From Bacteroidales bacterium (GTDB lineage Bacteria > Bacteroidota > Bacteroidia > Bacteroidales > UBA12077): a DNA stretch of 64,000 nt. The position numbers and the translations under genes are program-made. Under the pieces are notes generated by a model that ran no database searches, had not been told where the DNA came from, and saw only the letters and a list, made by a program, of their open reading frames with translations. Within the stretch, counting starts at the first letter, position 1. Each line of letters opens with the position of its first letter. The stretch spans positions 1 to 64,000 of the forward strand of contig JANQHR010000113.1 in assembly GCA_028282585.1 (NCBI GenBank). The letters are read 5' to 3'. This document shows, one piece after another, positions 35,714 through 51,223 of this stretch.

Positions 35714-35744
35714 GGAATCCGACAAAAACGTCGGATTTCTTTTT
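35714..35744 (+). terminator. Intrinsic terminator, T-tail on the plus strand, probably bidirectional
   Basis: GGAATCCGAC-AAAAAC-GTCGGATTTC followed by TTTTT. Confidence 0.75.
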
Positions 35745-36495
35745 ATATGAGATTAAAATTCTCCATTATTTTAAGGAACTCAGCTTTCTTTTCCCGCGCT
35801 ATAGCAACTTGTGATTCATCTTTCATTATAATATGCCCACCTTCGGTTTTAACATACATTTTTACAAAATGTAGATTTATTAAATGTGATTTATGGGTAC
35901 GGTAAAAATATTTTTCATCCACATAATCAATAAATTCTTTGAGCATTTTTGAAACAGTGATTTTTTTATTATTTATCAAATAAATATTTGTATATCTTCC
36001 GTCTGCTTCAAATCTTATTATATCTTTAAGCTTTATATATTCGAAACCCTTACTGGATGGAATAACTAGTTTTGTAGGAGATTTTTTTTCAATATTTTCT
36101 TTTAAAACCTGAAAGTTGATTAATTGATTGATTACTTTATTTCTTTTCGATTTAACTCTTTTAATTGAACAAATAAAATCATCTATATCAATTGGTTTTA
36201 CAAGATAATCTATTGCACTGTATTTAAATGCTTTTATTGCATACTGATTATAAGCTGTAATAAATACTAATTCAAAGTTTCTTTCAGTAATTGCTTCCAA
36301 AACATTAAATCCTGTACCATCTTGCATTTCAATATCCAAAAAAACTATATCCGGACTGTAAATGGAAATCGCAGTAATCCCTTCTTTTACAGAAGATGCT
36401 TTTTCAAGAATTTTTATTTCCGGGAAGAATTTTTTTATAATTGATTCTATGAAATCTCTTGTCTTTTTCTCATCATCTATTATAACTGCATTCAT
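35743..36495 (-). CDS. LytTR-family response regulator
   Basis: 'IIDDE', 'FLDIEM', 'FITAY', 'DYLVKP', LytTR 'FYRTHKSHLIN'. Confidence 0.95.
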   Translation of the reverse strand: MNAVIIDDEKKTRDFIESIIKKFFPEIKILEKASSVKEGITAISIYSPDIVFLDIEMQDGTGFNVLEAITERNFELVFITAYNQYAIKAFKYSAIDYLVKPIDIDDFICSIKRVKSKRNKVINQLINFQVLKENIEKKSPTKLVIPSSKGFEYIKLKDIIRFEADGRYTNIYLINNKKITVSKMLKEFIDYVDEKYFYRTHKSHLINLHFVKMYVKTEGGHIIMKDESQVAIAREKKAEFLKIMENFNLI

Positions 36496-36512
36496 AATAA
36501 CTATTTTGTCTA

Positions 36513-39500
36513 TTAGTTAAAAATTTTAGGAATTTGAAGTATAACCTTTGTTCCACATCCTATTCCATTTTCATTTTTTAGATCTATAAATTCAACTTTA
36601 AAATTCTTGTTATAAAGTTTATTTATAAGTTCAATGCGTCTATTCGTAATATTAGTCCCATGAGATTTATGCTTCGATTTTTTTTGCTTTTTTAATTCCA
36701 TTGCTTTTTCTCTTCCAATTCCGTCATCTTCAATAATACAAAGAATTGAAGATAAATTAAGTTGAAAATCGATCTTAATCTTTCCCTTCGTTTTTTTAGG
36801 AGTTATTCCATGCCATATTGAATTCTCGACATAGGGTTGGATTAACATTGGACTGATATGATATAATGAAGGATCCAGATTTTTATCTATTTTAATTTCA
36901 TAATCAAATTTACCTTCAGTTCTTAAACTTTCCAATTCCATGTAAAGTTCCAACGTATCAAGTTCTTTAAATATAGTAATCGTGTCATGCTGTGAGTTAT
37001 CCAATATTAAACGCATAAGTTTTGAAAACTTTGCCAAATATCTGGTAGATGAAATATTATCATTTTCGAAAATATAGTATTGTATTGCATTTAAAGTATT
37101 GAATATAAAATGCGGATTCATTTGTTGACTTAATGCTTGTTGTCTGAATTTATTGATTTCTTGCATTAACTTTTTCTCTAAAGCATTTCTTCGATTGATT
37201 TCATTAATTCTGATTTTGTAAATAACAAAAAGTATTGAAAGAATTACAAAAAGGCTTAAAAGAATAATTGAACTTACAAACCACCAGGTTTTCCAATAAG
37301 GAGGTTTAATCGTAAGACTTAGTGTAGCAGGTACACTGCTTTCATAATCATCTTCGTTTATAGCTATTACTTCAAAATTATATTTTCCGGGCGATAAGAA
37401 TGATAAGTTCACATGATTATCTGGTGTTTCAATCCAATTTGCCTGATTCCCGGACTGATTTAATCTGTATTTATACTTCTTATTCTCTATGTTTCTGTAC
37501 ATTAAGCCAATAAACTCAATATTTAAGGAATTATGATTATAAGGCAAATCGTAATGTTTTTTTATAATGGTATCTTTATCTTGTATTTGAATACTTTTTA
37601 TATAAACAGGTGGAGGGAAACTATTTAGTTTCATTCTATTATGATCTATAACGGAAAGTCCGTTATGGGTAGCAATATATGCCATCGAATCGTTAACATA
37701 TATATCATTAATTTCATTTGAAGCTAATCCATGCGTAGTATAAAATGATTCTATTGAAAAATCATTCGTTATTACTTTACTATTTAAACTAATTTTATTT
37801 AATCCATTTTTAGTTGCTACCCATATTGTAGTATCCATGATAAAGAATGATGTAATGTTATTACTCGACAATCCATTTTCAGTAGTAATATTATAAATGG
37901 AATCAGGATCATATACAATAATCCCATTAGAACTGCTTCCGATCCAAAAGTTATTGTGAAAGTTATTTTGCTCTATACAAAGTATTTTACTTTCCAATAG
38001 TTTTTTATTACCTAAAAACAGAAATTCTTTAGTTGAAATTGAATACTCCCATAAACCATTATTACAGCCTAATAAAAATACATCATTTGTTTTTTGATTT
38101 ATAGTATTTATTCTATAATTAGAGCCTTTTAATTTGCTGTATTTTAAGTAGTTATTAGATAGTTTGTGTAAACCATCATAAGAAGCTATCCATAAGTCAT
38201 TATTTTTATCAATAGCCAAATCTCTGATTTGAACATTAGTATAATTTTCCGGGAAATCTTCTATTGTAAAAAATGATCTTAAAACATTGTTTTTAAACAA
38301 ATATAAGGATGAAGAGGCTATCCACAACTTTTTCTCTTTTTTATCATAAAATATATCATAAATAAACTCAGCTGATTTATCCAATTTAATTTCCTTATTT
38401 ACTTTTCCTGATTCAATTCCCTGTACATAATTATTATTAGATCCAATCCATATCGTTGATGAATCTTTTTCTACTGTTGTTATCACTTCACTTTTTAAAC
38501 CATCTTTTACATTGAAATTTTGAGATGCTATATTGGGTAAATAGTATAAACCATTCTGAAGTGATGAAAACCAATAACCTCCTTCTCTGTCTTCAAGAAC
38601 AGAAGAAATACTTTTATTTTTTAAAAAGTGTTTACCTTTGCTTCCAATATTCAAATCATTATAAACATAAGCTCCATTATTAGTTCCAAGCCATAAATTA
38701 TTTTTACTGTCAATATTCATCCAAATTATATTTACAGGAAAATTTTTTTTACAAAAAATTGCTGAGTCTTTAATGTGGATTATATTGTTTCCATGGACAA
38801 TGAAGTAACTATCGTCTTTTTTTATTCCAAATTTCATCCCGAATTCAATTTTTGGATCAAAAGATCCTTGATATATTTTAATACTATCTTCTATTATTGA
38901 ATATAAATAAGGGTTGAATTTAATTTTTCTATTAACATTTCCCTGAAGTAATTTATTATCTTTTACAAAATACCACAATTGATTCATATTCTTTCCTGGA
39001 GTGCTTATGTTTCCCAATGAATCAATTATATATAAAGCATTATTCTTTTTATCTCGAAAATAAATATTGTCTTTGCTATCAATATAGAACATCAACTTAT
39101 TGGGATTTGAATTCCCTTTTAAATAGCTTTGAATCTTATCATTAAATTTATAATGATAAATACTGTCATTGAGGTAATAAGAAAGGTTTATGGAATGTGG
39201 CATAAACCAAATTCGTCCTTTATGATCTTCAATAATTTCGAAAACGGTATTGTCAGGCAAACCATCTTCTGCGGTAAAAATCTTAAATTCATACCCATCA
39301 TATTTACTAACCCCGTTATCAGTAGCAATCCAGATATATCCTTTTGAATCCTGAAAAACATGATAGGTTTCAGAAGTTGGTAGCCCGTCTTTGGCTGTAA
39401 AATGGCGGAATGGATACGATTGTGATAAAGCTTCAAAATTAATACATAATAAAATAAAAATTAGTAGCAATAATCTTTTTAAAAGCGGTCGTATATAATT

Positions 39501-39536
39501 GAACTTATTTTGATATAAAATCAAATGTGTGTTCAT
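36513..39536 (-). CDS. LytS-type sensor histidine kinase with periplasmic beta-propeller and Y_Y_Y domains
   Basis: 'DSKGYIWIAT..G' propeller repeats, 'LSPGKY.F.V.A', TM after 'PPYWKTWWF', 'QMNPHFIFNTLN', 'QPYVENSIWHG'. Confidence 0.93.
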   Translation of the reverse strand: MNTHLILYQNKFNYIRPLLKRLLLLIFILLCINFEALSQSYPFRHFTAKDGLPTSETYHVFQDSKGYIWIATDNGVSKYDGYEFKIFTAEDGLPDNTVFEIIEDHKGRIWFMPHSINLSYYLNDSIYHYKFNDKIQSYLKGNSNPNKLMFYIDSKDNIYFRDKKNNALYIIDSLGNISTPGKNMNQLWYFVKDNKLLQGNVNRKIKFNPYLYSIIEDSIKIYQGSFDPKIEFGMKFGIKKDDSYFIVHGNNIIHIKDSAIFCKKNFPVNIIWMNIDSKNNLWLGTNNGAYVYNDLNIGSKGKHFLKNKSISSVLEDREGGYWFSSLQNGLYYLPNIASQNFNVKDGLKSEVITTVEKDSSTIWIGSNNNYVQGIESGKVNKEIKLDKSAEFIYDIFYDKKEKKLWIASSSLYLFKNNVLRSFFTIEDFPENYTNVQIRDLAIDKNNDLWIASYDGLHKLSNNYLKYSKLKGSNYRINTINQKTNDVFLLGCNNGLWEYSISTKEFLFLGNKKLLESKILCIEQNNFHNNFWIGSSSNGIIVYDPDSIYNITTENGLSSNNITSFFIMDTTIWVATKNGLNKISLNSKVITNDFSIESFYTTHGLASNEINDIYVNDSMAYIATHNGLSVIDHNRMKLNSFPPPVYIKSIQIQDKDTIIKKHYDLPYNHNSLNIEFIGLMYRNIENKKYKYRLNQSGNQANWIETPDNHVNLSFLSPGKYNFEVIAINEDDYESSVPATLSLTIKPPYWKTWWFVSSIILLSLFVILSILFVIYKIRINEINRRNALEKKLMQEINKFRQQALSQQMNPHFIFNTLNAIQYYIFENDNISSTRYLAKFSKLMRLILDNSQHDTITIFKELDTLELYMELESLRTEGKFDYEIKIDKNLDPSLYHISPMLIQPYVENSIWHGITPKKTKGKIKIDFQLNLSSILCIIEDDGIGREKAMELKKQKKSKHKSHGTNITNRRIELINKLYNKNFKVEFIDLKNENGIGCGTKVILQIPKIFN

Positions 39537-39592
39537 AAGTAAGTCGTTTTAAGTTTATTAATAACAAGGATGAATAACATATTTTGAATTTA

Positions 39593-39714
39593 CAAATGTA
39601 CAAGTTTTTATAACTTTATTTTAACACTTTACAACATCAAACTTACATTTAATAACATCAGATTTACTGTATATAACTTTAGCTGGAATATGAATAAAAA
39701 TGAATTTATGTTTG
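39593..39714. promoter_or_regulatory. Divergent promoter pair with 21-bp direct repeats (LytTR-type boxes), copy 2
   Basis: Minus-strand -7 at 39593-39600; TAACACTTTACAACATCAAAC / TTACATTTAATAACATCAGAT at 39622-39663; plus-strand TATGTTTG at 39707. Confidence 0.7.
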
Positions 39715-39866
39715 AACAAGTTTAGAGTGCTAAACAGTAGTTGAGTGAAATGAGCAGCTTGTTCTCATCTGTCTTATTCAACACTTAAATATAGGTACAC
39801 AATAGGAAATAAAGGGAAAATTCCAAACCCAAATTAAAAATAATTAACTAATTAAAAAATAAGGAA

Positions 39867-40439
39867 ATGAGAATGATTTTAAAACTGAACAAAAAAGTAT
39901 TAGTTGTTTTAATGGGATTATCATTAATTACTATTTCATGCGAGAAGGAAGATGAAAATGATAATAACGAAGAACAAATAATTGAAAATTCATTTACATA
40001 TGATGGTACAGAATATCCAACTCCTAATGCAATTGTAGTAAATGCAGGAGAAACAGAAGATGGGGAAACTGAATTTGAGTTGTTTTTTTATTCTTCAGCA
40101 GTAGGTTATGAAATTGATGAAGGTGAAGTTTATTTTTCTTCAGGTGTAGGTGAGTTAGTTTCATTGTATTTAACTGCAAATATGTTATCGGAGAATTTAC
40201 CAGAAGGAGATTATGCATATGTAGGAGATGGAAATTTACTGGATATGGCAGAAATTGAAATTAACACAGATTTTGGTTCTGATGATGATACCGGAATTTA
40301 TTTGGAAGAATTAAACGGTCAAGTTAAAGTTACAAAAGATGGAAATGAATATCATATTGAATATACATTGCTATTGACTAATTCGAAAACACTGCAAGGG
40401 CAATATAAAGGTGTAATTAAACAGGAGTCAAACCAATAA
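39867..40439 (+). CDS. Acidic lipoprotein, probably surface-exposed
   Basis: Lipobox 'TISC' followed by acidic EKEDEND, resembling the Bacteroidota lipoprotein export signal. Confidence 0.75.
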   Translation: MRMILKLNKKVLVVLMGLSLITISCEKEDENDNNEEQIIENSFTYDGTEYPTPNAIVVNAGETEDGETEFELFFYSSAVGYEIDEGEVYFSSGVGELVSLYLTANMLSENLPEGDYAYVGDGNLLDMAEIEINTDFGSDDDTGIYLEELNGQVKVTKDGNEYHIEYTLLLTNSKTLQGQYKGVIKQESNQ

Positions 40440-40477
40440 ATATTCATATAACTAACAATTTAAAAATCTGAAGATTC

Positions 40478-41103
40478 ATGAAAAAAGGGACGTATATTTT
40501 TTGCCTAATGCTATTAGGATTAATAATAAGTAATAAAGCTTTGAGCCAAACTGCAATTGGGTTTAAAGGGTCACTTCAAATGACGAAGTTAGATAGTAAA
40601 TGGAACTATAGCGATGATATAGAAACTATGTGGGTTTATATGCCAGATTTCGGCGTTGTTGTTAATTTTGGATACGAAAATCCACTATCATTTCAAATGG
40701 AATTTAATTATTCTCCAAAAGCTACAAAATATACTGAATTTGGTGAAGAAACGAAACAAACAAACTATTATTTAGATTTGCCTCTACTTTTAAAAGCTCA
40801 GTTTGGTAAAAACGAGGCTAAATTCTACTCGATTTTTGGTGTAACTGCAAGCTTCCCATTTGTAATAAAGTATAATTCTGATGAAGATGAGTCAAAAGTC
40901 AATATTATGTAAAGACGAAACAGCAATTGAGGATTATTTGGATGCTGCTTTATCAATAGGGGCGGATTTTTCTTATGAATTAGATAACGGTAGTTTTTTT
41001 TACTGAAATAAGATATAATCACGGCTTAGGAAACACTCTAGATTTTGGAGATTATGATAGTAAAGCGTTAAGGCTTTCAGTTGGGTACTTATTCCACTTG
41101 TAG
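40478..41103 (+). pseudogene. Outer-membrane beta-barrel (porin-family) gene with two frameshifts
   Basis: Signal peptide, 'YLDLPLLLK'; continues after shifts near 40910 and in the T8 run at 40994-41001 to 'EIRYNHGL...LSVGYLFHL*'. Confidence 0.75.
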
Positions 41104-41347
41104 TTTATATATTTTAATATTATATGCATTGTTAGACCTATTAATAGGTTTCAATTATAAGTTTTGAGATCCGAGAATTCAGTCGTATTTCTTTTTATGT
41201 ACCCTTTTACGCGACTAAACCAATATTTAATAAATAGCAAATGGTTGAAGGCTAGTTGTTAAAGGTCAATAGCTTAAAACTAAAAATAAACAAGAAAATG
41301 AAATAATCTAAATAATGAACACTTAATAACTTATTAAACCAAAAAAC

Positions 41348-42613
41348 ATGAGAAAATTACTTTTACTTTTTAGCGCAATCTTTTTAACTGCAGGTATTTG
41401 GGCGCAAACAACAAATACTTTTCCAGAAAATGGTAATGTTGGTATTGGAACAACAAATCCTGCTTATAATTTAGATGTTAAAGACATAACACCAACTATA
41501 AGACTTGAGAGTGAAGTGAACAATGCAACCGGGTCGATGATTCGATTTACTGAACTTGCTTTCCAAGGAGCTTATCTTCAATACAAAGGAGACGCAAATA
41601 GATTTGATATTGGAATGCATAATGTAAATAGTTATTTAACTACTGACGATATTCCTGCTATTTCTATCTTACGTAGTAACAATAATGTTGGTATCGGAAC
41701 AACAAATCCGGTTACCAAACTTCATATTGAAGGAGCATCAGTTAATTGGAACGAAATGGTTCCAGGTAAAAATTATGGAACTATTCACTTGAGTACAGGT
41801 ACTAGTCTTGATCACTATGGAAATGCTATTACATGGGGAGCCAGTGATGCAGGAAATGCGCAAGCAGGTATTTATGTTAGAAGTGACGGCTCATATGGAA
41901 CAAAAATGTATTTTGCAACTACGGATTCTTATGTAACAGGTTCTAAAACAAGACTATTTATTGGACATAATGGCAACGTTGGTATCGGAACAACAAGCCC
42001 CAATGCTAAACTTGATATAAAAGCTGCTACTGGTGATATAATGGTGTTAGAAACTACTTCTGCAATAAACAATGTTATGAGATTTAAAAACCAAGGCATA
42101 GAAAATGGTGCAATCTATAGTTTAGCAGGACAGGATGATTTTTATATAAGAGCTACAAACCCAACTGGTAAATTAATTTTACAAAACGCCGGTAGCATTT
42201 CAATGATACTGGATGAAAATCAAAGAGTTGGAATAGGAACAGCTAATCCAACATACAAACTTTCTGTAGCAGGAACTATTAGCTGCGGAGAATTAATTGT
42301 AGAAGATGTTACAGGCTGGGCCGATTTCGTTTTCGAAGACGATTACAGCTTAATGAGTTTGAAAGATCTTGACAAGTATATTCAGACAAACAAACACTTA
42401 CCTGAAATTCCAACAACTGCCGAAGTGGAAGAAAACGGTATTTCGGTTGGCGAAATGAACACCAAGTTATTGCAAAAAATCGAAGAGCTTACACTTTATA
42501 CGATTCAACAACAAAATTTAATTAATAATCAACAAGAACTTATTGAAGCTCAAGAACAAAGTTATAATGAATTAAAAAACGAAATTGAACAAATAAAACA
42601 ATTAATAAAATAA
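41348..42613 (+). CDS. Secreted GIGT-repeat fibre-like protein with conserved WADFVF/HLPEIP/LLQKIEELTLY and coiled-coil C-terminus
   Basis: Signal peptide; four (G)NVGIGT-type repeats; C-terminus resembles the intramolecular-chaperone/peptidase-S74-like end of trimeric fibres. Confidence 0.75.
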   Translation: MRKLLLLFSAIFLTAGIWAQTTNTFPENGNVGIGTTNPAYNLDVKDITPTIRLESEVNNATGSMIRFTELAFQGAYLQYKGDANRFDIGMHNVNSYLTTDDIPAISILRSNNNVGIGTTNPVTKLHIEGASVNWNEMVPGKNYGTIHLSTGTSLDHYGNAITWGASDAGNAQAGIYVRSDGSYGTKMYFATTDSYVTGSKTRLFIGHNGNVGIGTTSPNAKLDIKAATGDIMVLETTSAINNVMRFKNQGIENGAIYSLAGQDDFYIRATNPTGKLILQNAGSISMILDENQRVGIGTANPTYKLSVAGTISCGELIVEDVTGWADFVFEDDYSLMSLKDLDKYIQTNKHLPEIPTTAEVEENGISVGEMNTKLLQKIEELTLYTIQQQNLINNQQELIEAQEQSYNELKNEIEQIKQLIK

Positions 42614-42644
42614 AATGAGATTCCGTGTCAAAATTTGAGAAAAC

Positions 42645-42714: not shown

Positions 42715-42727
42715 AAAAACTAAAAAC

Positions 42728-43978
42728 ATGAAAAAATTCTTTTTAATTACACTCACAACCTTTATAACATTTAATGTTTGGAGTCAGACCAACACTTTTC
42801 CAACAACAGGTAATGTTGGCATTGGAACAATAAGTCCTCTCACCAAATTACAGGTAGGACAAAATAGTTCCACGAAAACTTCAGATGAATTAATGAGGTT
42901 AAGTATGGATGTAACCGAACCAGGTATAAAAACTGCACTCCATATTGATGCAAATCTATCTTCTCCATCCTGGGACAAAGGTATAGCTATCGAATTAGGA
43001 TTGAAATCGAACCTTTATAATGAATATACAAGTAGAATAATACATTACGGAAATTCTGCAACTACCAGAGCAAGTAAATTACAATTACAAACTCATTCTG
43101 TAACAGATGGTATTTGGAATGTTGGAATATTGATCGATGATATTGGCAATGTTGGTATCGGAACAACAAGTCCAACTGAAAAACTAGAAGTTAAAGACGG
43201 AAATTTTAGACTAAGTAATTTAACAGGAGTAGCTTACGGCTCACTTGGAAAAATTGATTTCTATAATTATGCGAGTGCTGCAAGTGTTGTTTCTGCAAGA
43301 ATAGAAGGTAAACGAGATAGTTATAGTCACAAAGATGGTAGATTATCATTTTACACATCAGATAATGACGGAAATTTAAATGAACAATTAACTATTGACA
43401 GAAATGGCAAAGTAGGTATCGGAACAACTTCACCTTCTGCTGGTTTTGATGTTTTCATGTCAACAAATGACTATTGGACTGCAAAAATAAAGAATAATGG
43501 AGGTAGCTCCAAGGGACTGCTTCTTGAAGTTGGATATGGTGGGGGCCCTGTCGCAACTATAATGCAACTAAACGATGGAAGTGGAAATGTAAGAGCTGTG
43601 TTTAAAAGTAATGGAAATGTTGGTATTGGAACAACGAACCCAACGTACAAACTTGCAGTAACAGGAACTATTGGCTGCGGTGAATTAATTGTAGAAGATG
43701 TTACAGGCTGGGCTGATTTTGTTTTCGAAGACAATTACAACTTAATGAGCCTGAAAGATCTTGACAGGTACATTAAGATAAACAAACACTTACCCGAAAT
43801 TCCAACAACTGCCGAAGTAGAAGAAAACGGAATTTCCGTTGGCGAAATGAACGCCAAGTTATTACAAAAAATCGAAGAGCTTACATTGTATACTATACAA
43901 CAACAAGAAGTTATTGAAGCTTTAAAAACTGAAATGGAAGTTCAAAATAAAAGAATTGAACAATTAGAAAATAAGTAA
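42728..43978 (+). CDS. Secreted GIGT-repeat fibre-like protein, paralog of 41348-42613
   Basis: Same repeats and near-identical C-terminal domain; different inter-repeat modules. Confidence 0.75.
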   Translation: MKKFFLITLTTFITFNVWSQTNTFPTTGNVGIGTISPLTKLQVGQNSSTKTSDELMRLSMDVTEPGIKTALHIDANLSSPSWDKGIAIELGLKSNLYNEYTSRIIHYGNSATTRASKLQLQTHSVTDGIWNVGILIDDIGNVGIGTTSPTEKLEVKDGNFRLSNLTGVAYGSLGKIDFYNYASAASVVSARIEGKRDSYSHKDGRLSFYTSDNDGNLNEQLTIDRNGKVGIGTTSPSAGFDVFMSTNDYWTAKIKNNGGSSKGLLLEVGYGGGPVATIMQLNDGSGNVRAVFKSNGNVGIGTTNPTYKLAVTGTIGCGELIVEDVTGWADFVFEDNYNLMSLKDLDRYIKINKHLPEIPTTAEVEENGISVGEMNAKLLQKIEELTLYTIQQQEVIEALKTEMEVQNKRIEQLENK

Positions 43979-43980
43979 TT

Positions 43981-46900
43981 ATGGCATATTTAAAACAATT
44001 TAAGAAATTTGGACTGATCTTAATAATCGGTTTAATATACTTAAGTTCCTATGCACAAGATTGTGTAGTAACATTTGAAACTCCTGGACCTATTCACGTA
44101 AATAATACCGCAGGGAGTGTTGAAATTGTAGTAAATAGTACCAGTATGGAATGTCCGTGGGGTGTAAGTGATGATGCAACTTGGGTAACAACTACATATG
44201 AACATAATGGAACAGAAGGTATAATTGTTACTGCAACATATCAGGAAAACCCTACAGAGTCTCAGAGAGTGGCTAATGTTTGTGTCTACGATAAATGCAT
44301 AGAATTGAAACAAGCACCTGCCTGTAGCGATGAACCTGTTATATCTTTAGTTTACACCAATCCAATTGATGCAATGGATTGTAACCTTAAAAATGGAGTT
44401 ATTGAAACTAGGGATTATGTAAAGCTTAATAGTAATTTTTCACACTCATGTGCAGGAGGCCCTGGAGGCCCTATACCGATAGGCGCTACATTACCTACTT
44501 CAACTGCTTATAGAGGTGAATTAAGAATTACAACAAACCCTGATTTAATTTGTAACTCCGAATATTTGTACGTGCCAAAAGATGGTAACGACCGGCCATT
44601 AGATAAAACTGATGCAGCTGTAGGTAGTACCGCTGGAACAGCCGGAGTTTCTCCTAACGGAGCAGCTACATACAATTTACCAATACGAATTCCTCCGGGG
44701 ATAAATGGAATGCAGCCTGCTGTTAGTATAACTTACAATAGTCAGGCCGGCCGCAGTGTTATTGGTAAGGGTTTTAATATTGCAGGACTTTCAAGTATTA
44801 CTAGAACAACACAGAATCTTTATTACGATGAAACTGTTTATTGGTTAAGTTTGGATGGAGATGATAGATATGTTATGAATGGTAATAGATTACTTCATGT
44901 AAATAAGGAATACGGAGATATTGATTCAGAATATAGAACTGAACAAAATAGCTTTGCTCGTATTTTTCAAAGAAATTCAGGCGCAAATCAATATTTTGAA
45001 GTTGAAACAAAGGATGGTAAGACTTTAGAATTTGGTAATACATCAAATTCTAAATATATAATACCCGGCACCGCCAATCCTTTTTCATGGTATTTAAATA
45101 AAGTTACTGACAATAATGGGAACTTTATAGAATATAATTATCAACAAATTGAAGGTGAAATACTATTGAAAAGTATAGAATATACTGGAAACGGAAGTTT
45201 CGATCCATTAAATTCTATTACATTTTACTATGATAAAAGAGATGATAAGAAAGAATACTTTGTAGTTGGGAAAGAAATTAAACAACAACATATCCTAAGA
45301 AAGATTTTAGTAAGAACTAGTGATAAAGTAACTAGAAAATATGAATTCAATTATTTTCAAGATGTAAATGACGAGAGTTGCCTAAATGAAATTGTTGAAA
45401 GTAACGGAGCAGGAGAGCAATTTAACTCAACCATTTTTAATTGGGGGCAATTAAATCGTTTTAACAATACTGTTAATACATCATACGTAAAACCTTTAAG
45501 TATAAGACACCCATGGGAACAAAGCTATACTTCGTGTGATCTAAATCAGGATGGTTTAACAGATTTAATAGGATTTTTTCCTTATGAAATTAGAGTTCCG
45601 GATGACAGTGATGATGGTTATAATGTAATTTCTCATGATAATGATTATGTTCAAACATATTTAGCTAAACCAAACGAGGATGGAAGCATTTCTTTTGAAT
45701 CTTTTGGATTTAGTAGTTTATTGCCGCCATCTGTAGTTTCTCGTTCTTTCGCTCAAATAAATACTCGTCCTATGGTTGGGGACATATGGGGTGAAGGAAA
45801 GGTTGATATTATTTTTCCAATGTATGAGGATTTATTTAATACAAAAATAGGATTCAATTTTATTAATAGAACTATATCAGGAAACATTCCTGGATATGGA
45901 GTGGAAGTAGAACCGGAAGAATTTCCATTGTATACGGTAGATGATATTGAAAATAACGGTAGAGATAATATTATTGTTTTAGATAAAGTGTCTCATAAAT
46001 TAACTATTGTTGAATCAGAAAATGATTTTCAAGACCAGTTGTTTAATGAGATAAGTGTTACACTTGCACTCAGTAGTGATCCAGAAGCTCTATTTACTGG
46101 TGATTATAATAACGATGGATTTAAAGATATCAGAATAGTAACTGAAACAGAAATTTTAACGTTAGATCTTACGGAAGATTTAACAGCAAATCCAACAAAA
46201 TCTGTATCTTATCAAAATATTCACCATCGTTTTTCCAGACAGGGAGATTTTAATGGCGATGGTTTATTAGATATTTTAATTATAGGTAATCAATACGAAT
46301 CGAGTATAGTTGCGTATAGTATTGGTTCATTATCTTTGGATATTAAAACTCTCACATCTATAAAAGGTATAAACGATACATATACTTCTAAAGATAATGA
46401 TGAAGATAATATTATTGTTACTGATTTTAATTATGATGGAAAAACAGATTTTATATTATTTGATTCAAGATATACTGCCTTTGATCATGATTTTGATGAA
46501 TTTGAAATAAAATGGTATGTCTCTGATGGTGATGGATTTCATGCTGTAGAGCAAACTAAAACAACAAACAAAGACCACACTAATAGAGATTTATATGTAA
46601 CAGGAGACTTTAATGGTGATGGTCGTTTAGATTTCTTGAATTATGGCTATGAATGTTACAATGGAACTAGTTATACAGATGGTTGGCGTTCATATAGTGA
46701 TTTTAATGATAATTTCGAAGCAAATCGTGTAAAGTCAATACATAATGGTTTTAACCACAAAACTGAATTTAAATACCGTCCGTTAAGTCACGATATATAC
46801 GATGGAGAATCCATATTCTACAAAAAAGGATCTTCAAGTATAGATAATGTAATTCATCTCCAGTTTCCATTATACATGGTTGAGACTATGACAGAACCAG

Positions 46901-49900
46901 ATGGTAAAGGTGGATTTATTAATACAAGTTATACTTATGAAGGTTTTCGAGCTCATAACCAGGGAAAGGGCATATTAGGGTTCGAAAAAGTTACTGCGTA
47001 TAACGACAAAACTAAATTTAAAACAATATCTTCAAATGCAATAGATCCAACGTTTTTTGTACTTAGTAACCAAACAAGTAAAATATATTATAACGAAACC
47101 ACATTAGTATCCGAAAATACAACTAATTTCGGTTATGAAACATTTACTGAAAACCCCAAACTCATTTTTAATCATCCAACTACTGTTGTAAATGAAAATA
47201 AATTAACCGGTGTAAAAATTACAAAGAATAACTTTACTTACGATACGTTTGGTAATCTTTCATCTCTTAATGAAATATATAAGGAAAGTGACGATGTTGT
47301 TGATGTAACCATAAATACTTCAAATTCTTATTTAAATATTGATGACGGTGTAAATTATTATTCAAGATTAACCTCCACAACTGTTACTAAATCCAATTTA
47401 GTTGATTCAGATGACATCAAAACTTCAACATACTCATATTATACTGATGGTAACCTGGAAACAAGTAATTCTTTGGGAGTAACGGTTACCAACAATTTAT
47501 ATGATCAGTTTGGAAATGTAACTAAACAAACAACAAGTGGTACGGGAGTTGAAAATCATGTAGTTACCTATACTTATGATGCCACAAACAGGTTTGTTAA
47601 AACAACAACCAACGAAGAGTTGAGTCAAACAAGCACAGCAGAATATAACAACCTGGGGCAATTAATTTCAGAAACCGGTGTTGATGGCTTAGCTACCAAA
47701 TATGCTTACGATAACTGGGGTAAACTAAAAACAGTTACCAATCCTAACGGGAAAAAATCGAATTACAGTACTGACTGGGATCAGATTGATGGATTTAATT
47801 TCTATACTTTGGAACAAACGGATGGAGTACCCGACGTTAAAACTTATTTCGACAATTATGGTAGAAAAGTAAGAACAGAAACAACTTCGTTTGGAGGATT
47901 AATGTACTCAGATATTGAATACAACAATAAGGGGCAAGTTGCTAAAACAATTTCGCCTTATTTCCAAGCTTCGGGTTACTCGACCATACATATCACAACA
48001 TATAATTATGACGAATATGGCCGTGAATATAGTGTTACAAAAAATAATCTAACAAAATTAACTAACTACACTTTTGGGAGCAACGATGTTGAAGAAGTAT
48101 TCCCTTCTGGAAAAACAAAAAAGAGCTACTTAGATGCTACAGGGAAAACCTTCCAAATTACTAATGCGGGTGTTGACATGTCCTATCATTATTGGAGTGA
48201 TGGACAGCTTAAAGATGCTTCTGTAACAGGTTCCGGGTCACAAATCGATTTAACTTACGATAATTATGGAAACCGTCAATCTTTAATCGATCCCGATGCT
48301 GGTAATTATGGTTTTACTCACGATGTTTATGGGCGTCTAATAAATAAGACCAGTCCAATTGGAATTTATTCTGCAACATTTGATACAAAAGGTAGATTAC
48401 AAAGCGAAACGGAAGGTGGTAATAACATAACTTATACTTATGTAGAAAATGGTAATGGAATAAATCAGGTTAAAGCCATTTCCGATAATGGTGTTGAGTT
48501 CCAAAGTTTTGAATACGACGAATACGACCGAATAAAGAAGCTTACCGAGCAGGTTGGTGATATTTCTATGGAAGCAAGTTATCAATATGATGAATATGGT
48601 AGAGAATCTGCAATTAATTACCCTCAAGGGTTTGGAATTAAATATTCTTATAATCCTGGTACGGGTGAGCTTATTGGAATAACAACAAACACTGATTTAC
48701 CTATTTGGAACTTAGTTGATATAAATGAACACGGGCAAATTACCAAATATAACTCTGGAAATGGCTTGCAAACTGAATTGATTTACGATGCAAATAATTT
48801 CTTAAGTAGAATTAAAACCGGAACAGTTCAGGATTTAACTTATGTTTTCGATCACAATTCGGTTGTATTGCAAGAGAGAACTGGTTTGATAGAAGGAATG
48901 ACTGAGTACTTTGATTATGATAACCTAAATCAGTTGAAAAATGTTACAGCCAACAGTAAACCGCAACTAAACCTTACAATGACATATGATGAAAACGTTG
49001 CCGGTAGGATGGAATCAAAATCTGATATTGGAGTATTTTCATATACAAGTCCGCGTCCGCATGCTATAACTGGTATCGATATCTCAAATACTAGTTATAA
49101 TCCGGTTACCACTGATACAATTATCTATACTTTATATGGTAAAGTTTCCCGGATTGAACAGGGACAGTTTGATTATGATTTCACTTATGGTCCAGACCAT
49201 CAGCGTAAAATGATGGAAGTATACCAAAACGAAACGTTAATACGCAAAGTATATTACTTTGGGAATTACGAACGCCACGAAGAAGTAAGTGGTACAACAC
49301 ATCTGTTTTATATATATTCGCCAACTGGTTTAACAGCTATTTATAAATTAGCAGATGGGGCGAGTACAGGTGATTTGTATTATATACACAAAGATCATTT
49401 AGGTTCAATACAGATTGTAACCAATCAAAATAAAGCTGTATTAGCTCGATATTATTACAATGCATGGGGTTTAAAAAGTAATTTGGATGTTGCTACGGGT
49501 ACGTTGATTCAAGCAAACGATGATTTACCGTGGTTACATCGTGGATATACTGGGCACGAGCATTTATCCGAAATTGATCTGATTAACATGAATGGTCGAA
49601 TGTACGATGCAGATTTAGGTATGTTCATTAGTCCTGATCCACATGTACAGTCACCTGATCATCCGGTTAATTTTAATAGATATGCATATGTTTTAAATAA
49701 TCCATTAATTTATACAGATCCGAGTGGTGAGTTCTGGAATCTTGTTATCGGAGCTGTAATTGGAGGAGTTGTTAACTGGGCAACAAATGGGGCAGATTTT
49801 ACTTGGGAAGGACTTGGATATTTTGCGGTTGGCGCGGTTGCAGGTGCTGCAGGTGCAGGTATAGGTAGTGGAGTAAGTTCAGCACTTGCTGGAGGAAGTT

Positions 49901-50631
49901 TTAGTTCTGGTTTTGTAAGTTCTGCTGCGGCCCAAACAGCAACAACAGGTTTTACTTCTGGCGCTGCAATAGGTGGTTCTTCAGGTTTTGCAGGTGGATT
50001 TATAACCGGAGCAGGTAATGCATGGCTTGGAGGAGATTCTTTTGGTGAAGGTTTATGGGAAGGAACAAAAATGGGATTAATTTCTGGCATTTCAGGAGCT
50101 ACATTAGGGGGTGTTGCTAGCGGATTAATAGCAACAAATAATGGTATGGATTTCTGGGATGGCGATATAACTTTAGAAGAAAGAATTAAAATAATTGAAA
50201 GCAATATTTCTGAAAGTGATAGACAATTAGGTAGTATTAAATCTGTTAAAATTGGCAAAAGAATGGGGAAAGCAGAAGGAACTACATACAGAGGAGTAAG
50301 AAACTATGCAAAAGATGGAACAGTTTATTATACAGATAATACTATTGAATTAAAAAAATCTACTGTTAGAAGAATATGGAAAGGAGATGTAAGAGGGATG
50401 GAAATTTTGAAACACGAAATATTTCATTCTAAAGATTGGGCTTCAGGTTATCATCATAAAATATATAATGGAATTGGTTATGAAAATAATCAACTTGTCA
50501 AATGTAATATGGAATTCAGAGCTTTCTATTATAATTATAAAAACTCTGGACTAGGTATATTTAAAACTTCGTATCAAAAATGGTACAATGAATATTTTAG
50601 AATTTTATCAGAATTAAATATAACCCACTAA
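43981..50631 (+). CDS. Rhs/YD-repeat polymorphic toxin: signal peptide, BACON-like, SpvB, FG-GAP, TcdB-midN-like, Rhs core, Gly-rich segment, HExxH domain
   Basis: 'GAATYNLPIRIPPGINGMQP', GDFNGDG repeats, 'GKGILGF', YD repeats, 'RGYTGHEHL...NMNGRMYD...NRYAYVLNNPLIYTDPSG', 'HEIFH'. Confidence 0.9.
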   Translation: MAYLKQFKKFGLILIIGLIYLSSYAQDCVVTFETPGPIHVNNTAGSVEIVVNSTSMECPWGVSDDATWVTTTYEHNGTEGIIVTATYQENPTESQRVANVCVYDKCIELKQAPACSDEPVISLVYTNPIDAMDCNLKNGVIETRDYVKLNSNFSHSCAGGPGGPIPIGATLPTSTAYRGELRITTNPDLICNSEYLYVPKDGNDRPLDKTDAAVGSTAGTAGVSPNGAATYNLPIRIPPGINGMQPAVSITYNSQAGRSVIGKGFNIAGLSSITRTTQNLYYDETVYWLSLDGDDRYVMNGNRLLHVNKEYGDIDSEYRTEQNSFARIFQRNSGANQYFEVETKDGKTLEFGNTSNSKYIIPGTANPFSWYLNKVTDNNGNFIEYNYQQIEGEILLKSIEYTGNGSFDPLNSITFYYDKRDDKKEYFVVGKEIKQQHILRKILVRTSDKVTRKYEFNYFQDVNDESCLNEIVESNGAGEQFNSTIFNWGQLNRFNNTVNTSYVKPLSIRHPWEQSYTSCDLNQDGLTDLIGFFPYEIRVPDDSDDGYNVISHDNDYVQTYLAKPNEDGSISFESFGFSSLLPPSVVSRSFAQINTRPMVGDIWGEGKVDIIFPMYEDLFNTKIGFNFINRTISGNIPGYGVEVEPEEFPLYTVDDIENNGRDNIIVLDKVSHKLTIVESENDFQDQLFNEISVTLALSSDPEALFTGDYNNDGFKDIRIVTETEILTLDLTEDLTANPTKSVSYQNIHHRFSRQGDFNGDGLLDILIIGNQYESSIVAYSIGSLSLDIKTLTSIKGINDTYTSKDNDEDNIIVTDFNYDGKTDFILFDSRYTAFDHDFDEFEIKWYVSDGDGFHAVEQTKTTNKDHTNRDLYVTGDFNGDGRLDFLNYGYECYNGTSYTDGWRSYSDFNDNFEANRVKSIHNGFNHKTEFKYRPLSHDIYDGESIFYKKGSSSIDNVIHLQFPLYMVETMTEPDGKGGFINTSYTYEGFRAHNQGKGILGFEKVTAYNDKTKFKTISSNAIDPTFFVLSNQTSKIYYNETTLVSENTTNFGYETFTENPKLIFNHPTTVVNENKLTGVKITKNNFTYDTFGNLSSLNEIYKESDDVVDVTINTSNSYLNIDDGVNYYSRLTSTTVTKSNLVDSDDIKTSTYSYYTDGNLETSNSLGVTVTNNLYDQFGNVTKQTTSGTGVENHVVTYTYDATNRFVKTTTNEELSQTSTAEYNNLGQLISETGVDGLATKYAYDNWGKLKTVTNPNGKKSNYSTDWDQIDGFNFYTLEQTDGVPDVKTYFDNYGRKVRTETTSFGGLMYSDIEYNNKGQVAKTISPYFQASGYSTIHITTYNYDEYGREYSVTKNNLTKLTNYTFGSNDVEEVFPSGKTKKSYLDATGKTFQITNAGVDMSYHYWSDGQLKDASVTGSGSQIDLTYDNYGNRQSLIDPDAGNYGFTHDVYGRLINKTSPIGIYSATFDTKGRLQSETEGGNNITYTYVENGNGINQVKAISDNGVEFQSFEYDEYDRIKKLTEQVGDISMEASYQYDEYGRESAINYPQGFGIKYSYNPGTGELIGITTNTDLPIWNLVDINEHGQITKYNSGNGLQTELIYDANNFLSRIKTGTVQDLTYVFDHNSVVLQERTGLIEGMTEYFDYDNLNQLKNVTANSKPQLNLTMTYDENVAGRMESKSDIGVFSYTSPRPHAITGIDISNTSYNPVTTDTIIYTLYGKVSRIEQGQFDYDFTYGPDHQRKMMEVYQNETLIRKVYYFGNYERHEEVSGTTHLFYIYSPTGLTAIYKLADGASTGDLYYIHKDHLGSIQIVTNQNKAVLARYYYNAWGLKSNLDVATGTLIQANDDLPWLHRGYTGHEHLSEIDLINMNGRMYDADLGMFISPDPHVQSPDHPVNFNRYAYVLNNPLIYTDPSGEFWNLVIGAVIGGVVNWATNGADFTWEGLGYFAVGAVAGAAGAGIGSGVSSALAGGSFSSGFVSSAAAQTATTGFTSGAAIGGSSGFAGGFITGAGNAWLGGDSFGEGLWEGTKMGLISGISGATLGGVASGLIATNNGMDFWDGDITLEERIKIIESNISESDRQLGSIKSVKIGKRMGKAEGTTYRGVRNYAKDGTVYYTDNTIELKKSTVRRIWKGDVRGMEILKHEIFHSKDWASGYHHKIYNGIGYENNQLVKCNMEFRAFYYNYKNSGLGIFKTSYQKWYNEYFRILSELNITH

Positions 50632-50659
50632 ATTACAATGAATTGTAATTAGTCATCCC

Positions 50660-50688
50660 GCTCCCGCGGACTTGCAGTCCGCGCGAGT
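50660..50688 (+). repeat. GC-rich REP-like hairpin
   Basis: GCTCCCGCGGACT-TGC-AGTCCGCGCGAGT; 21/26 identical to 51408-51433. Confidence 0.7.
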
Positions 50689-50758
50689 AATGAAAACGAA
50701 AAGGAACGGATGGTATATCCGTACCAACTTTAAAAGTAAAAACATAAAAAATAAAAAT

Positions 50759-51223
50759 ATGAAACTAAAAATTATAATAATCGGCTTATTGGCAATGGCA
50801 AGTATAAACTGCCTTGCACAAAGCATTGAGTATACCTACGATGCTGCTGGTAACCGCTCAAGTCGTAAGGTTATTCCTGCAGGTCCGCCAAGTGCACCAG
50901 CACAAGAACAAACAAACGAACCTTTCAACAATAACAACGAAGAAAAACAAGAACTGGAAGTTTACAACGATATTGTTGCCGAAACTGAGTTAAAAATTTA
51001 CCCAAACCCAACACGTGGGAAACTAAAAATAGATATTGTAAATTATGAGACCAATACAAATGGTAATGTAAAGGTTTTCGATTTAGGTGGACGTTTGGTT
51101 TACACAATTAACAACCTAAGCCAAAGCATGGAAATTGATATTACCAACGAGCCGGCAGGATCGTATATTATGGTAATAGTAGTAAACAACCAAAAATCGG
51201 AATGGAAAATTATTAAGCAATAG
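50759..51223 (+). CDS. Small secreted protein with a single YD repeat and a T9SS type A C-terminal sorting domain
   Basis: Signal peptide from ATG 50759; 'IEYTYDAAGNRSSR'; CTD 'KIYPNPT...VFDLGGR...PAGSYIM...KIIKQ'. Confidence 0.88.
   Translation: MKLKIIIIGLLAMASINCLAQSIEYTYDAAGNRSSRKVIPAGPPSAPAQEQTNEPFNNNNEEKQELEVYNDIVAETELKIYPNPTRGKLKIDIVNYETNTNGNVKVFDLGGRLVYTINNLSQSMEIDITNEPAGSYIMVIVVNNQKSEWKIIKQ

Follow-up and report, generated by a model that had tools for sequence, protein, structure and literature searches.

By what route does an Rhs toxin that has a Sec-type signal peptide but lacks a T9SS CTD leave the cell? The question is raised by a run of six co-oriented genes in the window, that is, the whole 64,000-nucleotide stretch analyzed here, from the genome of a Bacteroidota host (98% complete, 173 contigs). 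The run encodes a lipoprotein, a β-barrel, two fibre-like proteins, the Rhs toxin and a small protein with a single YD repeat and a CTD (YD+CTD); all features described below are on the forward strand unless noted otherwise. A sequence-only reading had interpreted the run as a candidate undescribed toxin-delivery system under LytS/LytTR control. All of the ORFs it named were found at the coordinates given, the six proteins all have hydrophobic N-termini ending in ...AQ or ...SQ (signal peptides were judged by a crude Kyte-Doolittle check plus reading by eye), and the T9SS CTD is confined to the last protein of the run. The integrity of the barrel gene, the start of the small gene and the domain content of the Rhs protein required correction; of the interpretation, the pairing of the Rhs and YD+CTD proteins was supported, and the inclusion of the lipoprotein, the barrel and the LytTR regulator as parts of the system was not.

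The upstream genes appear, from sequence comparisons, to be neighbors and not parts. A response regulator with receiver and LytTR domains (35743..36495, reverse strand; Pfam Response_reg 4.3e-17, LytTR 3.2e-14) and a sensor histidine kinase that combines a Reg_prop/Y_Y_Y sensor in the periplasm with a His_kinase domain of the LytS type (36513..39536, reverse strand; Pfam Reg_prop 2.5e-26, His_kinase PF06580 2.7e-19, Y_Y_Y 3.5e-7) have a comparable pair beside only one sampled locus (L052). The 190-residue lipoprotein (39867..40439; lipobox LITISC) belongs to no family, with no Pfam match and an NCBIfam match only at the level of the signal peptide. The outer membrane β-barrel (40478..41103; OMP_b-brl_2 1.3e-8, spanning only positions 9-123 of 175 in the profile) was correctly identified in the earlier reading, but its gene is broken: the ORF ends at 40912 (40478-40912), two +1 frameshifts lie near 40909 and 40994, the final strands can still be read, as far as 41103, in two other frames, and sister-strain contigs have one base fewer at 40909 and one at 40994. 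BLAST found no homologue of the lipoprotein or of the barrel, a pseudogene here, at the other fetched Rhs loci.

The Rhs gene (43981..50631; 2216 aa) starts 2 nt past the stop of the second fibre gene, and its product has a Sec-type signal peptide and lacks a CTD, all as previously described. Its identity as an Rhs protein also stands, but its SpvB and FG-GAP domains had been missed; because these are present, the protein is TcB-TcC-like (Pfam SpvB 3.2e-16, FG-GAP_3 9.6e-14, RHS_repeat 1.2e-19; TIGR03696 3.5e-16). The domains run from SpvB through the FG-GAP propeller and the RHS shell to the Rhs core; a Gly-rich segment and a rare HExxH tip complete the protein. The SpvB/TcB N-terminal shell region (residues 224-391; 44650..45153; Pfam SpvB) aligns with YenB residues 24-211, and its profile matches YenB (1.5e-20) and TcdB1 (2.3e-12); a sub-threshold BACON-like N-terminal domain (44095..44280; BACON_2 24.2 bits versus a cut-off of 25, E 3.3e-5) is missing from the protein sequence of the C23 paralogue. 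The FG-GAP (integrin-like) β-propeller region (45538..46641; Pfam FG-GAP_3, FG-GAP) has Asp/Gly columns (D520-G820) that are conserved across 29 homologues. The RHS/YD-repeat shell (47365..49728; Pfam, NCBIfam) ends with the Rhs-associated core (residues 1853-1916, ...YTDPSGE), which is invariant in the 29 homologues at R1854, G1855, E1860, N1871, R1873, Y1875, D1886 ... D1913 and G1916; this conserved core has an autoproteolysis-type motif.

Beyond the core are a Gly/Ala/Ser-rich hydrophobic segment (residues 1917-2070; 49729..50190; G 24%, A 15%, S 10%), with a GAxxG pattern in the 29-homologue consensus, and the toxin tip (50191..50628), a putative zincin-type metallopeptidase with HEIFH at residues 2145-2149. 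The earlier assignment of a protease is consistent with conservation of the HExxH...E pattern: E2146, H2149, D2152 and E2178 are invariant, and H2145 nearly so, in the tip homologues (23 representatives at E<=1e-3 among 1.84 billion proteins, the tip always being C-terminal). BLAST of the tip against the ORFs of 51 fetched loci returned zero matches; in a sister strain the tip is replaced and the YD+CTD gene is retained, with a contig that spans from 50063 to 50773 with 1272 other letters. The C-terminal tip is, as judged from these comparisons, swappable and here zincin-like, and we assign the locus to a Bacteroidota-specific class of polymorphic Rhs toxins.

The resemblance to the Tc cocoon (YenB/YenC2, TcdB-TccC) includes the SpvB shell region, the FG-GAP propeller, the RHS shell, the Rhs core and the enclosed variable C-terminal toxin. 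However, the Rhs protein described here has a Sec signal peptide in place of the ...PKGGGAI.G.GEKF start, its match to SpvB covers only positions 2-181 of 287, a search of this genome yielded no TcA, and the YD+CTD gene is located in TcA's place. Fused BC + TcA loci of the canonical type do occur in Bacteroidota; none of four canonical BC proteins with the ...PKGGGAI.G.GEKF start has a hydrophobic N-terminus, a large ORF follows the BC gene in all four loci, and neither a YD+CTD nor a fibre HMM match was found in any of them. TcA_TcB_BD is present in the three canonical-locus genomes searched (3/3) and was not found in the two YD-type genomes tested. T6SS Rhs effectors (PDB 7Q97, Tse15) provide the best PDB sequence matches (1.8e-42) and share the RHS shell and core; in contrast to these, the present protein lacks PAAR, VgrG or clade domains, has a signal peptide and is encoded by a genome in which no T6SS marker was found. 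The absence of T6SS and TcA markers from the window in fact extends to the whole genome (173 contigs), in which VipB/TssC, PAAR, VgrG, Phage_GPD, TcA, TcA_TcB_BD and VRP1 were searched for and not found; nor was TssC found in any of five genomes tested (5/5), with a model that is unproven on Bacteroidota T6SS. The T9SS is present, as had been supposed, that is, SprA was found. SprA also occurs in 23/23 genomes with such loci versus 297/400 overall (0/87 in family f37), but this co-occurrence is weak evidence because the sampled genomes are related and the T9SS is near-universal in their classes.

The gene downstream of the Rhs gene encodes the 154-residue YD+CTD protein (50759..51223; Por_Secre_tail E 6e-12 to 9e-12; RHS_repeat E 0.04 over 15 residues; TIGR04183 45.6 bits versus a cut-off of 23). 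Its existence and its CTD were correctly recognized, but translation probably begins at the ATG at 50759 (MKLKIIII...) instead of the TTG at 50672. The layout is a signal peptide (...AQ), a single YD repeat (IEYTYDAAGNRSSR), an acidic/Pro linker and a T9SS type-A CTD, with Q21, Y27, D28, G31, P82, P84 and Y136 invariant in 29 homologues. The pairing proposed from this one locus proved general: this genome contains three SpvB-Rhs loci, each with fibres and a YD+CTD paralogue (57-62% identity), and in a phylum sample of 400 genomes, related to one another, an adjacent secreted protein with a single YD motif is found at 37 of the 38 assessable loci of the SpvB-Rhs class. A CTD is recognized in 33: 29 loci have a small gene (<=220 aa) for a signal peptide, YD repeat and CTD, and four have a longer YD protein with Por_Secre_tail scores of 45.1, 30.6, 26.8 and 19.5 bits, against a Pfam cut-off of 27 bits that the two lowest do not reach. 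Conversely, 15 of 17 small full-length matches in the 400 genomes have an SpvB match on the same strand within 13 kb. Among relatives, the Rhs gene adjoins the small gene in 6/10 fetched loci, the remaining four being contig ends or short contigs.

The explanation that we favor, and consider on balance probable from the sequences, is that the Rhs cocoon is exported via the T9SS with the small YD+CTD partner providing the CTD in trans. The Rhs protein would cross the inner membrane by Sec, fold in the periplasm and enclose its tip; its own C-terminus would be buried inside the shell and, we propose, for this reason could not carry a T9SS signal. The single YD hairpin of the small protein would dock on the shell and thereby supply the CTD, and the complex would exit through the T9SS and then be displayed on the cell or released; target binding would derive from co-encoded MAT/phage-like trimeric fibres at about one third of the loci, including this one. 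Several observations count against this explanation. At four of the 38 loci the YD protein lacks a recognized CTD, and one locus has no YD protein; the six ‘large’ SpvB proteins (3273-3848 aa) are accompanied by another kind of CTD-bearing protein, without the N-terminal YD motif; and the 127-nt gap between the Rhs and small genes contains no immunity-like ORF, unlike the two paralogous loci.

Parts of this picture have precedents, so ‘undescribed’ was too strong a label. The toxin class was cataloged as ‘TcdB/TcaC’, with the same series of signal peptide, SpvB, integrin-like propeller, RHS and variable tip and with Bacteroidetes listed (Zhang et al., 2012; PMC3482391); the catalog entry names neither an outer-membrane route nor a YD+CTD partner. 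In Apibacter, SpvB/TcdB-type Rhs genes adjoin genes for T9SS type-A sorting domains, and a T9SS association was suggested (Steele and Moran, 2021; PMC8125069). As described there the gene pairing is the same, but the remark concerns one genus and does not include the single YD repeat, a signal in trans, phylum counts or fibres. TANFOR toxins are likewise Sec-signal polymorphic toxins of Bacteroidetes in neighborhoods rich in T9SS CTD proteins, for which T9SS export is only hypothesized (Jana et al., 2020; PMC7073777); in that account, the carrier is TANFOR instead of an Rhs cocoon, and the neighbors are large SprB-repeat CTD proteins instead of a YD mini-protein. Bacterial teneurin-like proteins are Sec-exported, surface-exposed YD shells around a polymorphic toxin (PMC13018210), and our profile matches 9PT5 at 7.7e-32 over the YD shell only; their description features FN-plug/NHL domains where SpvB and the propeller occur here, and mentions neither Bacteroidota nor the T9SS.

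The same synteny would also be expected if the YD+CTD protein were secreted alone by the T9SS, anchored to the surface after CTD processing, and used its YD hairpin to capture Rhs cocoons that leave the cell otherwise (vesicles, lysis). T9SS cargo is attached to the cell surface once its CTD has been removed, and the long acidic/Pro linker from the YD motif to the CTD would suit a tether. However, 28 of the 29 Rhs homologues have a Sec signal peptide (hydropathy and by eye) and no other outer-membrane route is recognizable, neither a lysis cassette nor a TcA was observed, and the tight gene coupling (the small gene is directly upstream at 20/38 loci, with a gap of <=13 nt in 11 of these 20) fits co-assembly before export; we regard capture at the surface as rather unlikely.

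We give still less probability to a role in assembly, in which the YD hairpin would briefly cap the free edge of the growing Rhs β-sheet in the periplasm and the CTD would only dispose of the cap. The canonical YD repeat is located directly behind the signal-peptide cleavage site in 29/29 aligned homologues, and, as expected of a generic cap, the paralogues within this genome are more conserved than the shells (62-68% versus 29-51% identity). Because the shells are less alike than their partners and the nearest paralogues match in only 9/13 cases, nothing indicates that the pairs diverged together, a further point against export in trans. A cap would nevertheless leave unexplained both Rhs export and the retention of the T9SS signal at 33/38 loci, including longer variants with extra domains.

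An equally improbable alternative is that the two proteins do not interact, that is, that the small gene encodes a separate T9SS cargo and travels with Rhs cassettes, perhaps as what is left of an earlier Rhs gene or as a handle for recombination. Recombination is concentrated at Rhs loci, and both orphan Rhs fragments (L048, L053, L063) and a YD+CTD gene without any Rhs (L057) were found. Yet the small gene is unlike a decaying remnant because its ORF is intact and includes a signal peptide, its residues Y27, D28 and G31 are invariant over at least 12 family codes at 17-35% overall identity, and it is found in two different gene orders and in 847 protein clusters.

The fibre proteins are relatives, by sequence, of the Bdellovibrio MAT and phage fibres. 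Fibre 1 (41348..42613; 421 aa) has a signal peptide, a coiled coil and a conserved C-terminal domain of ~100 residues; its paralogue, fibre 2 (42728..43978; 416 aa), is 41-44% identical with a near-identical C-terminal domain. Each has four VGIGT capping-loop motifs and PHROG tail-fibre matches (4e-16 to 9e-19), and the family profile (A6) matches the MAT fibre 8OND (Bd2133) at 3.2e-23. The signal peptide and the repeated VG(I/G/N)xxxPxxxL motif are shared with the MAT/phage S74 fibres as described (Caulton et al., 2024; PMC10769870); in contrast, the conserved end here is the C-terminal domain plus coiled coil, and the body varies. Peptidase_S74 matched 0/48 family members, and the similarity of the fibre profile to the second half of the S74 domains encoded in this genome reaches only 85%. 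The earlier view of these proteins as fibres is upheld, but not that of a fixed component: fibre genes are beside 12/38 loci (five genomes of four families), the family is large and mostly unlinked to Rhs (66/401 genomes, >5,400 proteins), and fibre 2 is missing in the sister strain (contig joint 42523 to 43956; runs X2 and X3). The fibres are accessory. There is little to recommend a Tc-like injection in which the fibres or another protein stand in for TcA and dock on the propeller, with no role for the T9SS in delivery: TcB docks on TcA through the end formed by SpvB and the FG-GAP propeller, and the fibre and Rhs genes are nearly contiguous, but 26/38 loci have no fibres, and TcA_TcB_BD was not found by a search that detects Bacteroidota TcA.

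Returning to export in trans, the YD+CTD protein looks like a conserved partner of the signal-peptide-bearing SpvB-Rhs class, and its adjacency to the Rhs gene suggests a possible export route for Tc-like Rhs toxins.

The main finding of our analysis is a small protein (154 aa; 50759–51223, plus strand) that is encoded at the end of the island and consists of a signal peptide, one YD repeat, a linker, and a T9SS type-A sorting domain (CTD; Por_Secre_tail, 9e-12; TIGR04183, 45.6 bits, above the cut-off of 23). Its start is most likely the ATG at 50759 (MKLKIIII...), judging from the N-termini of its two paralogues. It is preceded by the gene for the 2216-aa Rhs protein (43981–50631, plus strand), which starts 2 nt past the stop of the second of two paralogous fibre genes (41348–42613 and 42728–43978, plus strand). 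The island also contains, on the plus strand, genes for a 190-aa lipoprotein with no assigned family and an outer-membrane beta-barrel (40478–41103) with two +1 frameshifts and, on the minus strand, genes for a response regulator (receiver and LytTR domains) and a 1007-aa sensor kinase (Reg_prop, Y_Y_Y, and His_kinase PF06580). All of the ORFs that the sequence-only reading had named for 35743–51223 are thus present in this 4.9 Mb Bacteroidota assembly (G+C ~31%), where the window is contig C61. Its assignment of signal peptides to all six plus-strand products agrees with a crude check (each has a hydrophobic N-terminus ending in AQ or SQ), and its restriction of the T9SS CTD to the small protein agrees with Pfam, which identifies no CTD in the Rhs protein, fibres, lipoprotein, or barrel.

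The small protein is not unique to the window. The assembly contains three SpvB-Rhs loci, each with a paralogue of the small protein (57–62% identity) and with fibre genes; the gene order is fibre, fibre, Rhs, 224-aa lipoprotein, and YD+CTD on contig C105, and fibre remnant, Rhs, ORFs of 231 and 262 aa, YD+CTD, and fibre on contig C23. Of 30 related genomes, 8 encode small full-length homologues. The small gene adjoins Rhs in 6 of the 10 loci fetched from relatives, and in other families it is usually directly upstream of Rhs; the remaining 4 loci are at the ends of contigs or on short ones (3–5 kb). A sample of 400 genomes from the phylum gave 17 small full-length matches, of which 15 are within 13 kb of a same-strand SpvB match.

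The pairing is also evident when the loci are identified by the toxin, that is, by SpvB. The proteins of the window's class (~2000–2420 aa) have a partial SpvB match, and we fetched every such locus and searched its ORFs with HMMs; those of the canonical class have a full-length match (E ≤ 1e-62; 15, including fragments). From a total of 65 SpvB matches, our count of 38 assessable loci omits the three in the window's own genome, those of the canonical Tc type, six 'large' ORFs, a 190-aa fragment (G051), and two loci that are not assessable because of their short contigs (G168 and G130, 4.2 and 5.3 kb). A same-strand gene of ≤220 aa with signal peptide, YD motif, and CTD is present in 29 of the 38; four loci have a longer YD-motif protein that matches Por_Secre_tail at 45.1, 30.6, 26.8, and 19.5 bits, two of these scores falling short of the cut-off of 27, four have a protein of 177–278 aa with the same N-terminus in which a CTD is not recognised, and in one locus no YD protein of any kind was found. 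The small gene is directly upstream of Rhs in 20 loci, and in 11 of those the gap is ≤13 nt.

The 29 aligned YD+CTD homologues are 17–35% identical to the window's protein and have in common Q21 at the end of the signal peptide, Y27, D28, and G31 of the motif [FY]xYDxxGN[RQ]xxR, and P82, P84, and Y136 in the CTD, all of them invariant. The 2682 scored candidates include 847 clusters of the family at E ≤ 1e-5. Its sources include Flavobacterium and Chryseobacterium, and the only names given there to the clusters are 'T9SS type A sorting domain-containing protein' and 'hypothetical'. The homologue alignment (A5) has one clade with a CxxC or CxxxC pair after the YD motif (e.g., ...RTLCVNCLP...), which suggests a disulfide-closed loop; the pair is absent from the window's protein. 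A mirror-tree comparison of the YD+CTD and Rhs proteins gave a Spearman correlation of 0.60 (reached by 0 of 999 permutations) and matched the nearest paralogues in 9 of 13 cases; we dropped this correlation as evidence for co-evolution because relatedness alone accounts for it. Pair-specific co-divergence is not seen, because the YD+CTD paralogues in the window's genome resemble each other more than their shells do.

The partner of the small protein was identified as an Rhs toxin in the sequence-only reading; its RHS identity stands, but it is not a bare Rhs, since SpvB (residues 224–391) and FG-GAP repeats precede the RHS repeats and core. The N-terminus is of the TcB type (SpvB PF03534, 59.8 bits, partial match to 2–181 of 287; FG-GAP_3 propeller, 52.2 bits), with a BACON-like domain before SpvB that is sub-threshold (24.2 bits, where 25 is the cut-off). 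The RHS/YD repeats of the shell follow (PF05593, 1.2e-19; TIGR01643, 6.4e-10; 1.8e-42 for a profile comparison with solved Rhs shells), and the Rhs-associated core (TIGR03696, 59.5 bits, above the cut-off of 32.5), with a motif that is invariant in 29 homologues, ends in ...YTDPSGE at residue 1916. Beyond the core are a 154-residue hydrophobic stretch rich in Gly, Ala, and Ser (24% Gly) and a tip of ~150 residues with HEIFH at 2145. As judged from these domains, the architecture is that of a fused TcB-TcC cocoon. In one genome (G137; loci L048 and L053), two Rhs genes are interrupted between shell residues ~1700 and ~1703–1714 by an opposite-strand ORF of 325–376 aa that may be an insertion element.

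With this architecture, the window's Rhs shares SpvB and the propeller with Tc (ABC) complexes; however, it shares neither the signal-peptide-free cytoplasmic BC protein nor a TcA in the genome. The canonical comparison set is four Bacteroidota BC proteins (2567–2656 aa). These begin ...PKGGGAI.G.GEKF, and none of the four has a hydrophobic N-terminus, in contrast to 28 of 29 homologues in the window's class; a large ORF comes after the BC gene in all four loci (2910–3403 aa in three, the fourth being cut by the locus edge), and matches to the YD+CTD and fibre HMMs are absent. The TcA models PF18276 (TcA_TcB_BD) and PF03538 are unmatched across the window's genome, as the sequence-only reading had claimed for the window itself; this absence is meaningful because PF18276 detects TcA in 3 of 3 canonical Bacteroidota genomes (and in 0 of 2 YD-type genomes). 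The canonical fused TcB-TcC genes are at loci L066–L069 (genomes G362, G115, G292, and G340; TcA_TcB_BD confirmed in G362, G292, and G115), and two of these genomes belong to family f37, in which 87 genomes are without a match to the T9SS component SprA.

The third SpvB class, the 'large' proteins (3273–3848 aa), occurs at six loci (L070–L075, in G117, G241, G052, G301, G217, and G057). In five of these, a protein of 460–654 aa with a CTD-like C-terminus (one weakly, E 1e-4) is encoded directly upstream, and a YD motif was not seen near its N-terminus; the 'large' class and its CTD neighbour may be a parallel partner system.

The T9SS is represented in the window's genome by SprA (SprA_N, 1.8e-178, in a 2446-aa ORF on contig C32), but the window's Rhs differs from T9SS cargo in that it has no CTD of its own. 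SprA is found in 23 of 23 genomes with window-class loci, compared with 297 in the whole sample of 400 and none of the 87 in f37, a co-occurrence that is confounded by phylogeny. Delivery as a T6SS Rhs effector finds no counterpart here: the absence of VgrG and PAAR that had been claimed for the window extends to the whole genome, where PF05943 (TssC), PF05488 (PAAR), and PF05954 (Phage_GPD) are unmatched, so that neither PAAR/VgrG linkage nor a T6SS apparatus was found for this protein; TssC was also unmatched in 5 of 5 further genomes, with a model that is not validated on Bacteroidota T6SS.

The tip has few homologues. HMMER, run in full against 1.84 billion representatives, identified 23 proteins at E ≤ 1e-3, including the query's own, and the tip domain is at the C-terminal end in all of them (lengths 90 to 2216 aa); in a Pfam scan of ten, P0122 and P0133 have SpvB- or propeller-type RHS, and P0130 and P0135 have RHS_repeat alone. 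No matches were obtained to longer proteins in a 5.8-billion set (E ≤ 1e-3), to PDB sequences (E ≤ 10), or by BLAST to ORFs at 51 of the fetched loci. Across 20 aligned tips, the invariant residues are E2146, H2149, D2152, and E2178, with H2145 almost so; this HExxHxxD...E pattern fits a zincin-type metallopeptidase. The proposed protease is thus retained for its conserved HExxH motif, but it remains inferred from that motif because significant Pfam or PDB sequence matches are absent; the sole Pfam match, Peptidase_M91 (E 0.19), was counted as no evidence.

The tip is exchanged in a sister strain, a relative identified in contigs from DNA runs X2–X4 (with little or no cover in parts of Rhs, ~45446–46693). 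The runs listed are four from a single study, all of DNA, and one of the four may be the source run. Single contigs cover Rhs to 50063 and resume at 50773, with 1272 letters between these positions compared with 709 in the window (two runs, one study); the small YD+CTD gene is retained with 22 differences in 470. This is classical tip swapping, and the window's Rhs thus has the variable C-terminal toxin, exchanged between strains, by which an Rhs/YD polymorphic toxin is recognised. No cognate immunity gene is located directly downstream of the window's Rhs, where 127 nt separate it from the YD+CTD gene; at the paralogous loci in the genome, unannotated ORFs of 224, 231, and 262 aa are found between Rhs and the YD+CTD gene, and the extra letters in the sister strain leave room for an immunity gene. 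We rejected the 190-aa lipoprotein as an immunity protein: its only match, to BSAP-5i, is in the signal-peptide region and scores 17.6 bits where the cut-off is 150, and it has no homologues at other loci.

The fibres match phage tail-fibre PHROGs and have no Pfam family, including Peptidase_S74 (PF13884). The fibre profile (A6, 48 members) matches the Bdellovibrio MAT fibres (8OND, Bd2133, 3.2e-23; 8OML, 1.2e-12), for which the PDB entries are C-terminal constructs. Each fibre contains four copies of a capping-loop motif (VGIGT...P...L), and the fibres would be trimeric. This repeated motif is common to the window's fibres and the MAT and S74 fibres; PMC10769870 describes it for MAT and S74 trimeric beta-helices that serve as surface adhesins. 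The conserved end of the family is a C-terminal domain of ~100 residues with a coiled coil, and the body is variable. The C-terminal domain aligns with the second half of the S74 domains in the window's genome (hhalign probability 85%, E 6e-6, 56 columns, partly coiled coil), with WADFVF where S74 has SDxxxK.

The fibre family is large (>5,400 proteins at E ≤ 1e-10 among 8,000 candidates scored; 66 of 401 sampled genomes), and the window's genome has ~16 copies, most of them distant from Rhs genes. Of the 38 Rhs loci, 12 (in 5 genomes from 4 families) have adjacent fibre genes, always beside the Rhs or YD gene; this adjacency is far above chance for such a copy number, yet it is not obligatory. 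The co-occurrence expected in the sequence-only reading therefore holds for the YD gene (37 of 38 loci) but not for the fibres as an obligatory part. The number of fibres also varies, with one in the sister strain (joint 42523->43956) and two in the window. Two of the eight Peptidase_S74 fibre proteins in the window's genome (C161:31131-32843 and C58 ~2553) extend past S74 into a CTD-like tail (...YQN.PNPF...) that was identified by eye, and the gene immediately before the one on C161 encodes a fibre of the window's family. At L032 (an Rhs locus in G109), the gene next after the YD+CTD variant (6399–8039, minus strand) encodes 547 aa that include a Phage Tail Collar domain (1.2e-21); this is another fibre type in the same position.

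The remaining genes in the island are not conserved with the toxin. The lipoprotein and barrel had been listed in the co-oriented run, but neither has a homologue at any other fetched locus. The barrel gene is present on the plus strand but is broken: its ORF stops at 40912 after 144 aa, and the remaining strands are legible in two other frames as far as 41103, with frameshifts near 40909 and near 40994, the second of them within a T-run. Contigs of the sister strain, from three further runs of that study, have one base fewer at each of these places, and the barrel is therefore intact in that strain, with its three pieces joined in one frame. The LytTR/kinase pair, to which expression had been assigned, has a counterpart beside only one sampled locus (L052), and the C23 locus is flanked by housekeeping genes; the pair is a neighbour and not part of the Rhs system, and it may control the window's locus. 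A promoter/terminator scan was discarded, with fewer promoter-like sites than in shuffled sequences and models that do not cover Bacteroidota promoters. The island ends at 51223 and is followed by a SAM riboswitch (RF00162, 66.2 bits; 51732–51850, plus strand) and then by methionine-biosynthesis genes (52157–55720; O-acetylhomoserine sulfhydrylase, MetX, and homoserine dehydrogenase).

Much of this has precedent. In their available sections, PMC3482391 lists signal peptide, SpvB, propeller, and RHS as a polymorphic-toxin class; PMC8125069 reports that in Apibacter most such rhs genes are next to ones that encode T9SS type-A sorting-domain proteins, and calls them 'probably' T9SS-associated; PMC7073777 likewise proposes TANFOR toxins as T9SS substrates; and PMC13018210 describes bacterial teneurin-like proteins, another Sec-exported YD-shell class, with no mention of Bacteroidota or T9SS in that portion of its text. 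In the literature outside subscription journals and supplements we found no description of a single-YD-repeat partner or a trans-acting CTD; such neighbours may be among the entries in the supplementary tables of PMC8125069 and PMC7073777. The system had been called undescribed; the toxin class and its adjacency to T9SS genes are already known, but the single-YD-repeat CTD partner appears to be new. A known toxin class with a new candidate export partner is well supported by the sequences.

To our knowledge, all accepted T9SS cargo bear the CTD on their own chain. The Rhs protein would be unable to do so, since the toxin enclosed by the shell forms its C-terminus; a partner gene that encodes one shell repeat and a CTD would resolve this conflict, and the near-obligatory presence of the partner is expected if the YD+CTD gene does so. 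We tentatively propose, as a reading whose probability we place a little short of even, that the ~150-aa YD+linker+CTD proteins are trans-acting T9SS export adaptors that use beta-strand complementation to attach to TcB/TcC-like Rhs cocoons; the cocoons would be the first T9SS cargo with a borrowed sorting signal, and the Bacteroidota would have a T9SS-dependent system for the delivery of polymorphic toxins without TcA or T6SS and with MAT-like fibres as optional target-binding modules. The Rhs protein would be exported by Sec and fold in the periplasm, the single YD hairpin of the small protein would dock on its shell, and the CTD of the partner would serve as the sorting signal in trans; the complex would then be displayed on the surface or released, the fibres would mediate target binding, and the Gly-rich segment may aid membrane passage. 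Direct support extends to the architecture, the conserved pairing of two closely coupled genes, the contrast to Tc loci, the presence of the T9SS (SprA), and the polymorphism of tip and fibres. If the proposal is true, it would answer a question that has been open since 2012, that is, how Sec-dependent SpvB-Rhs toxins without TcA exit from Gram-negative cells, and the T9SS would gain a role in toxin delivery that has hitherto only been hypothesised.
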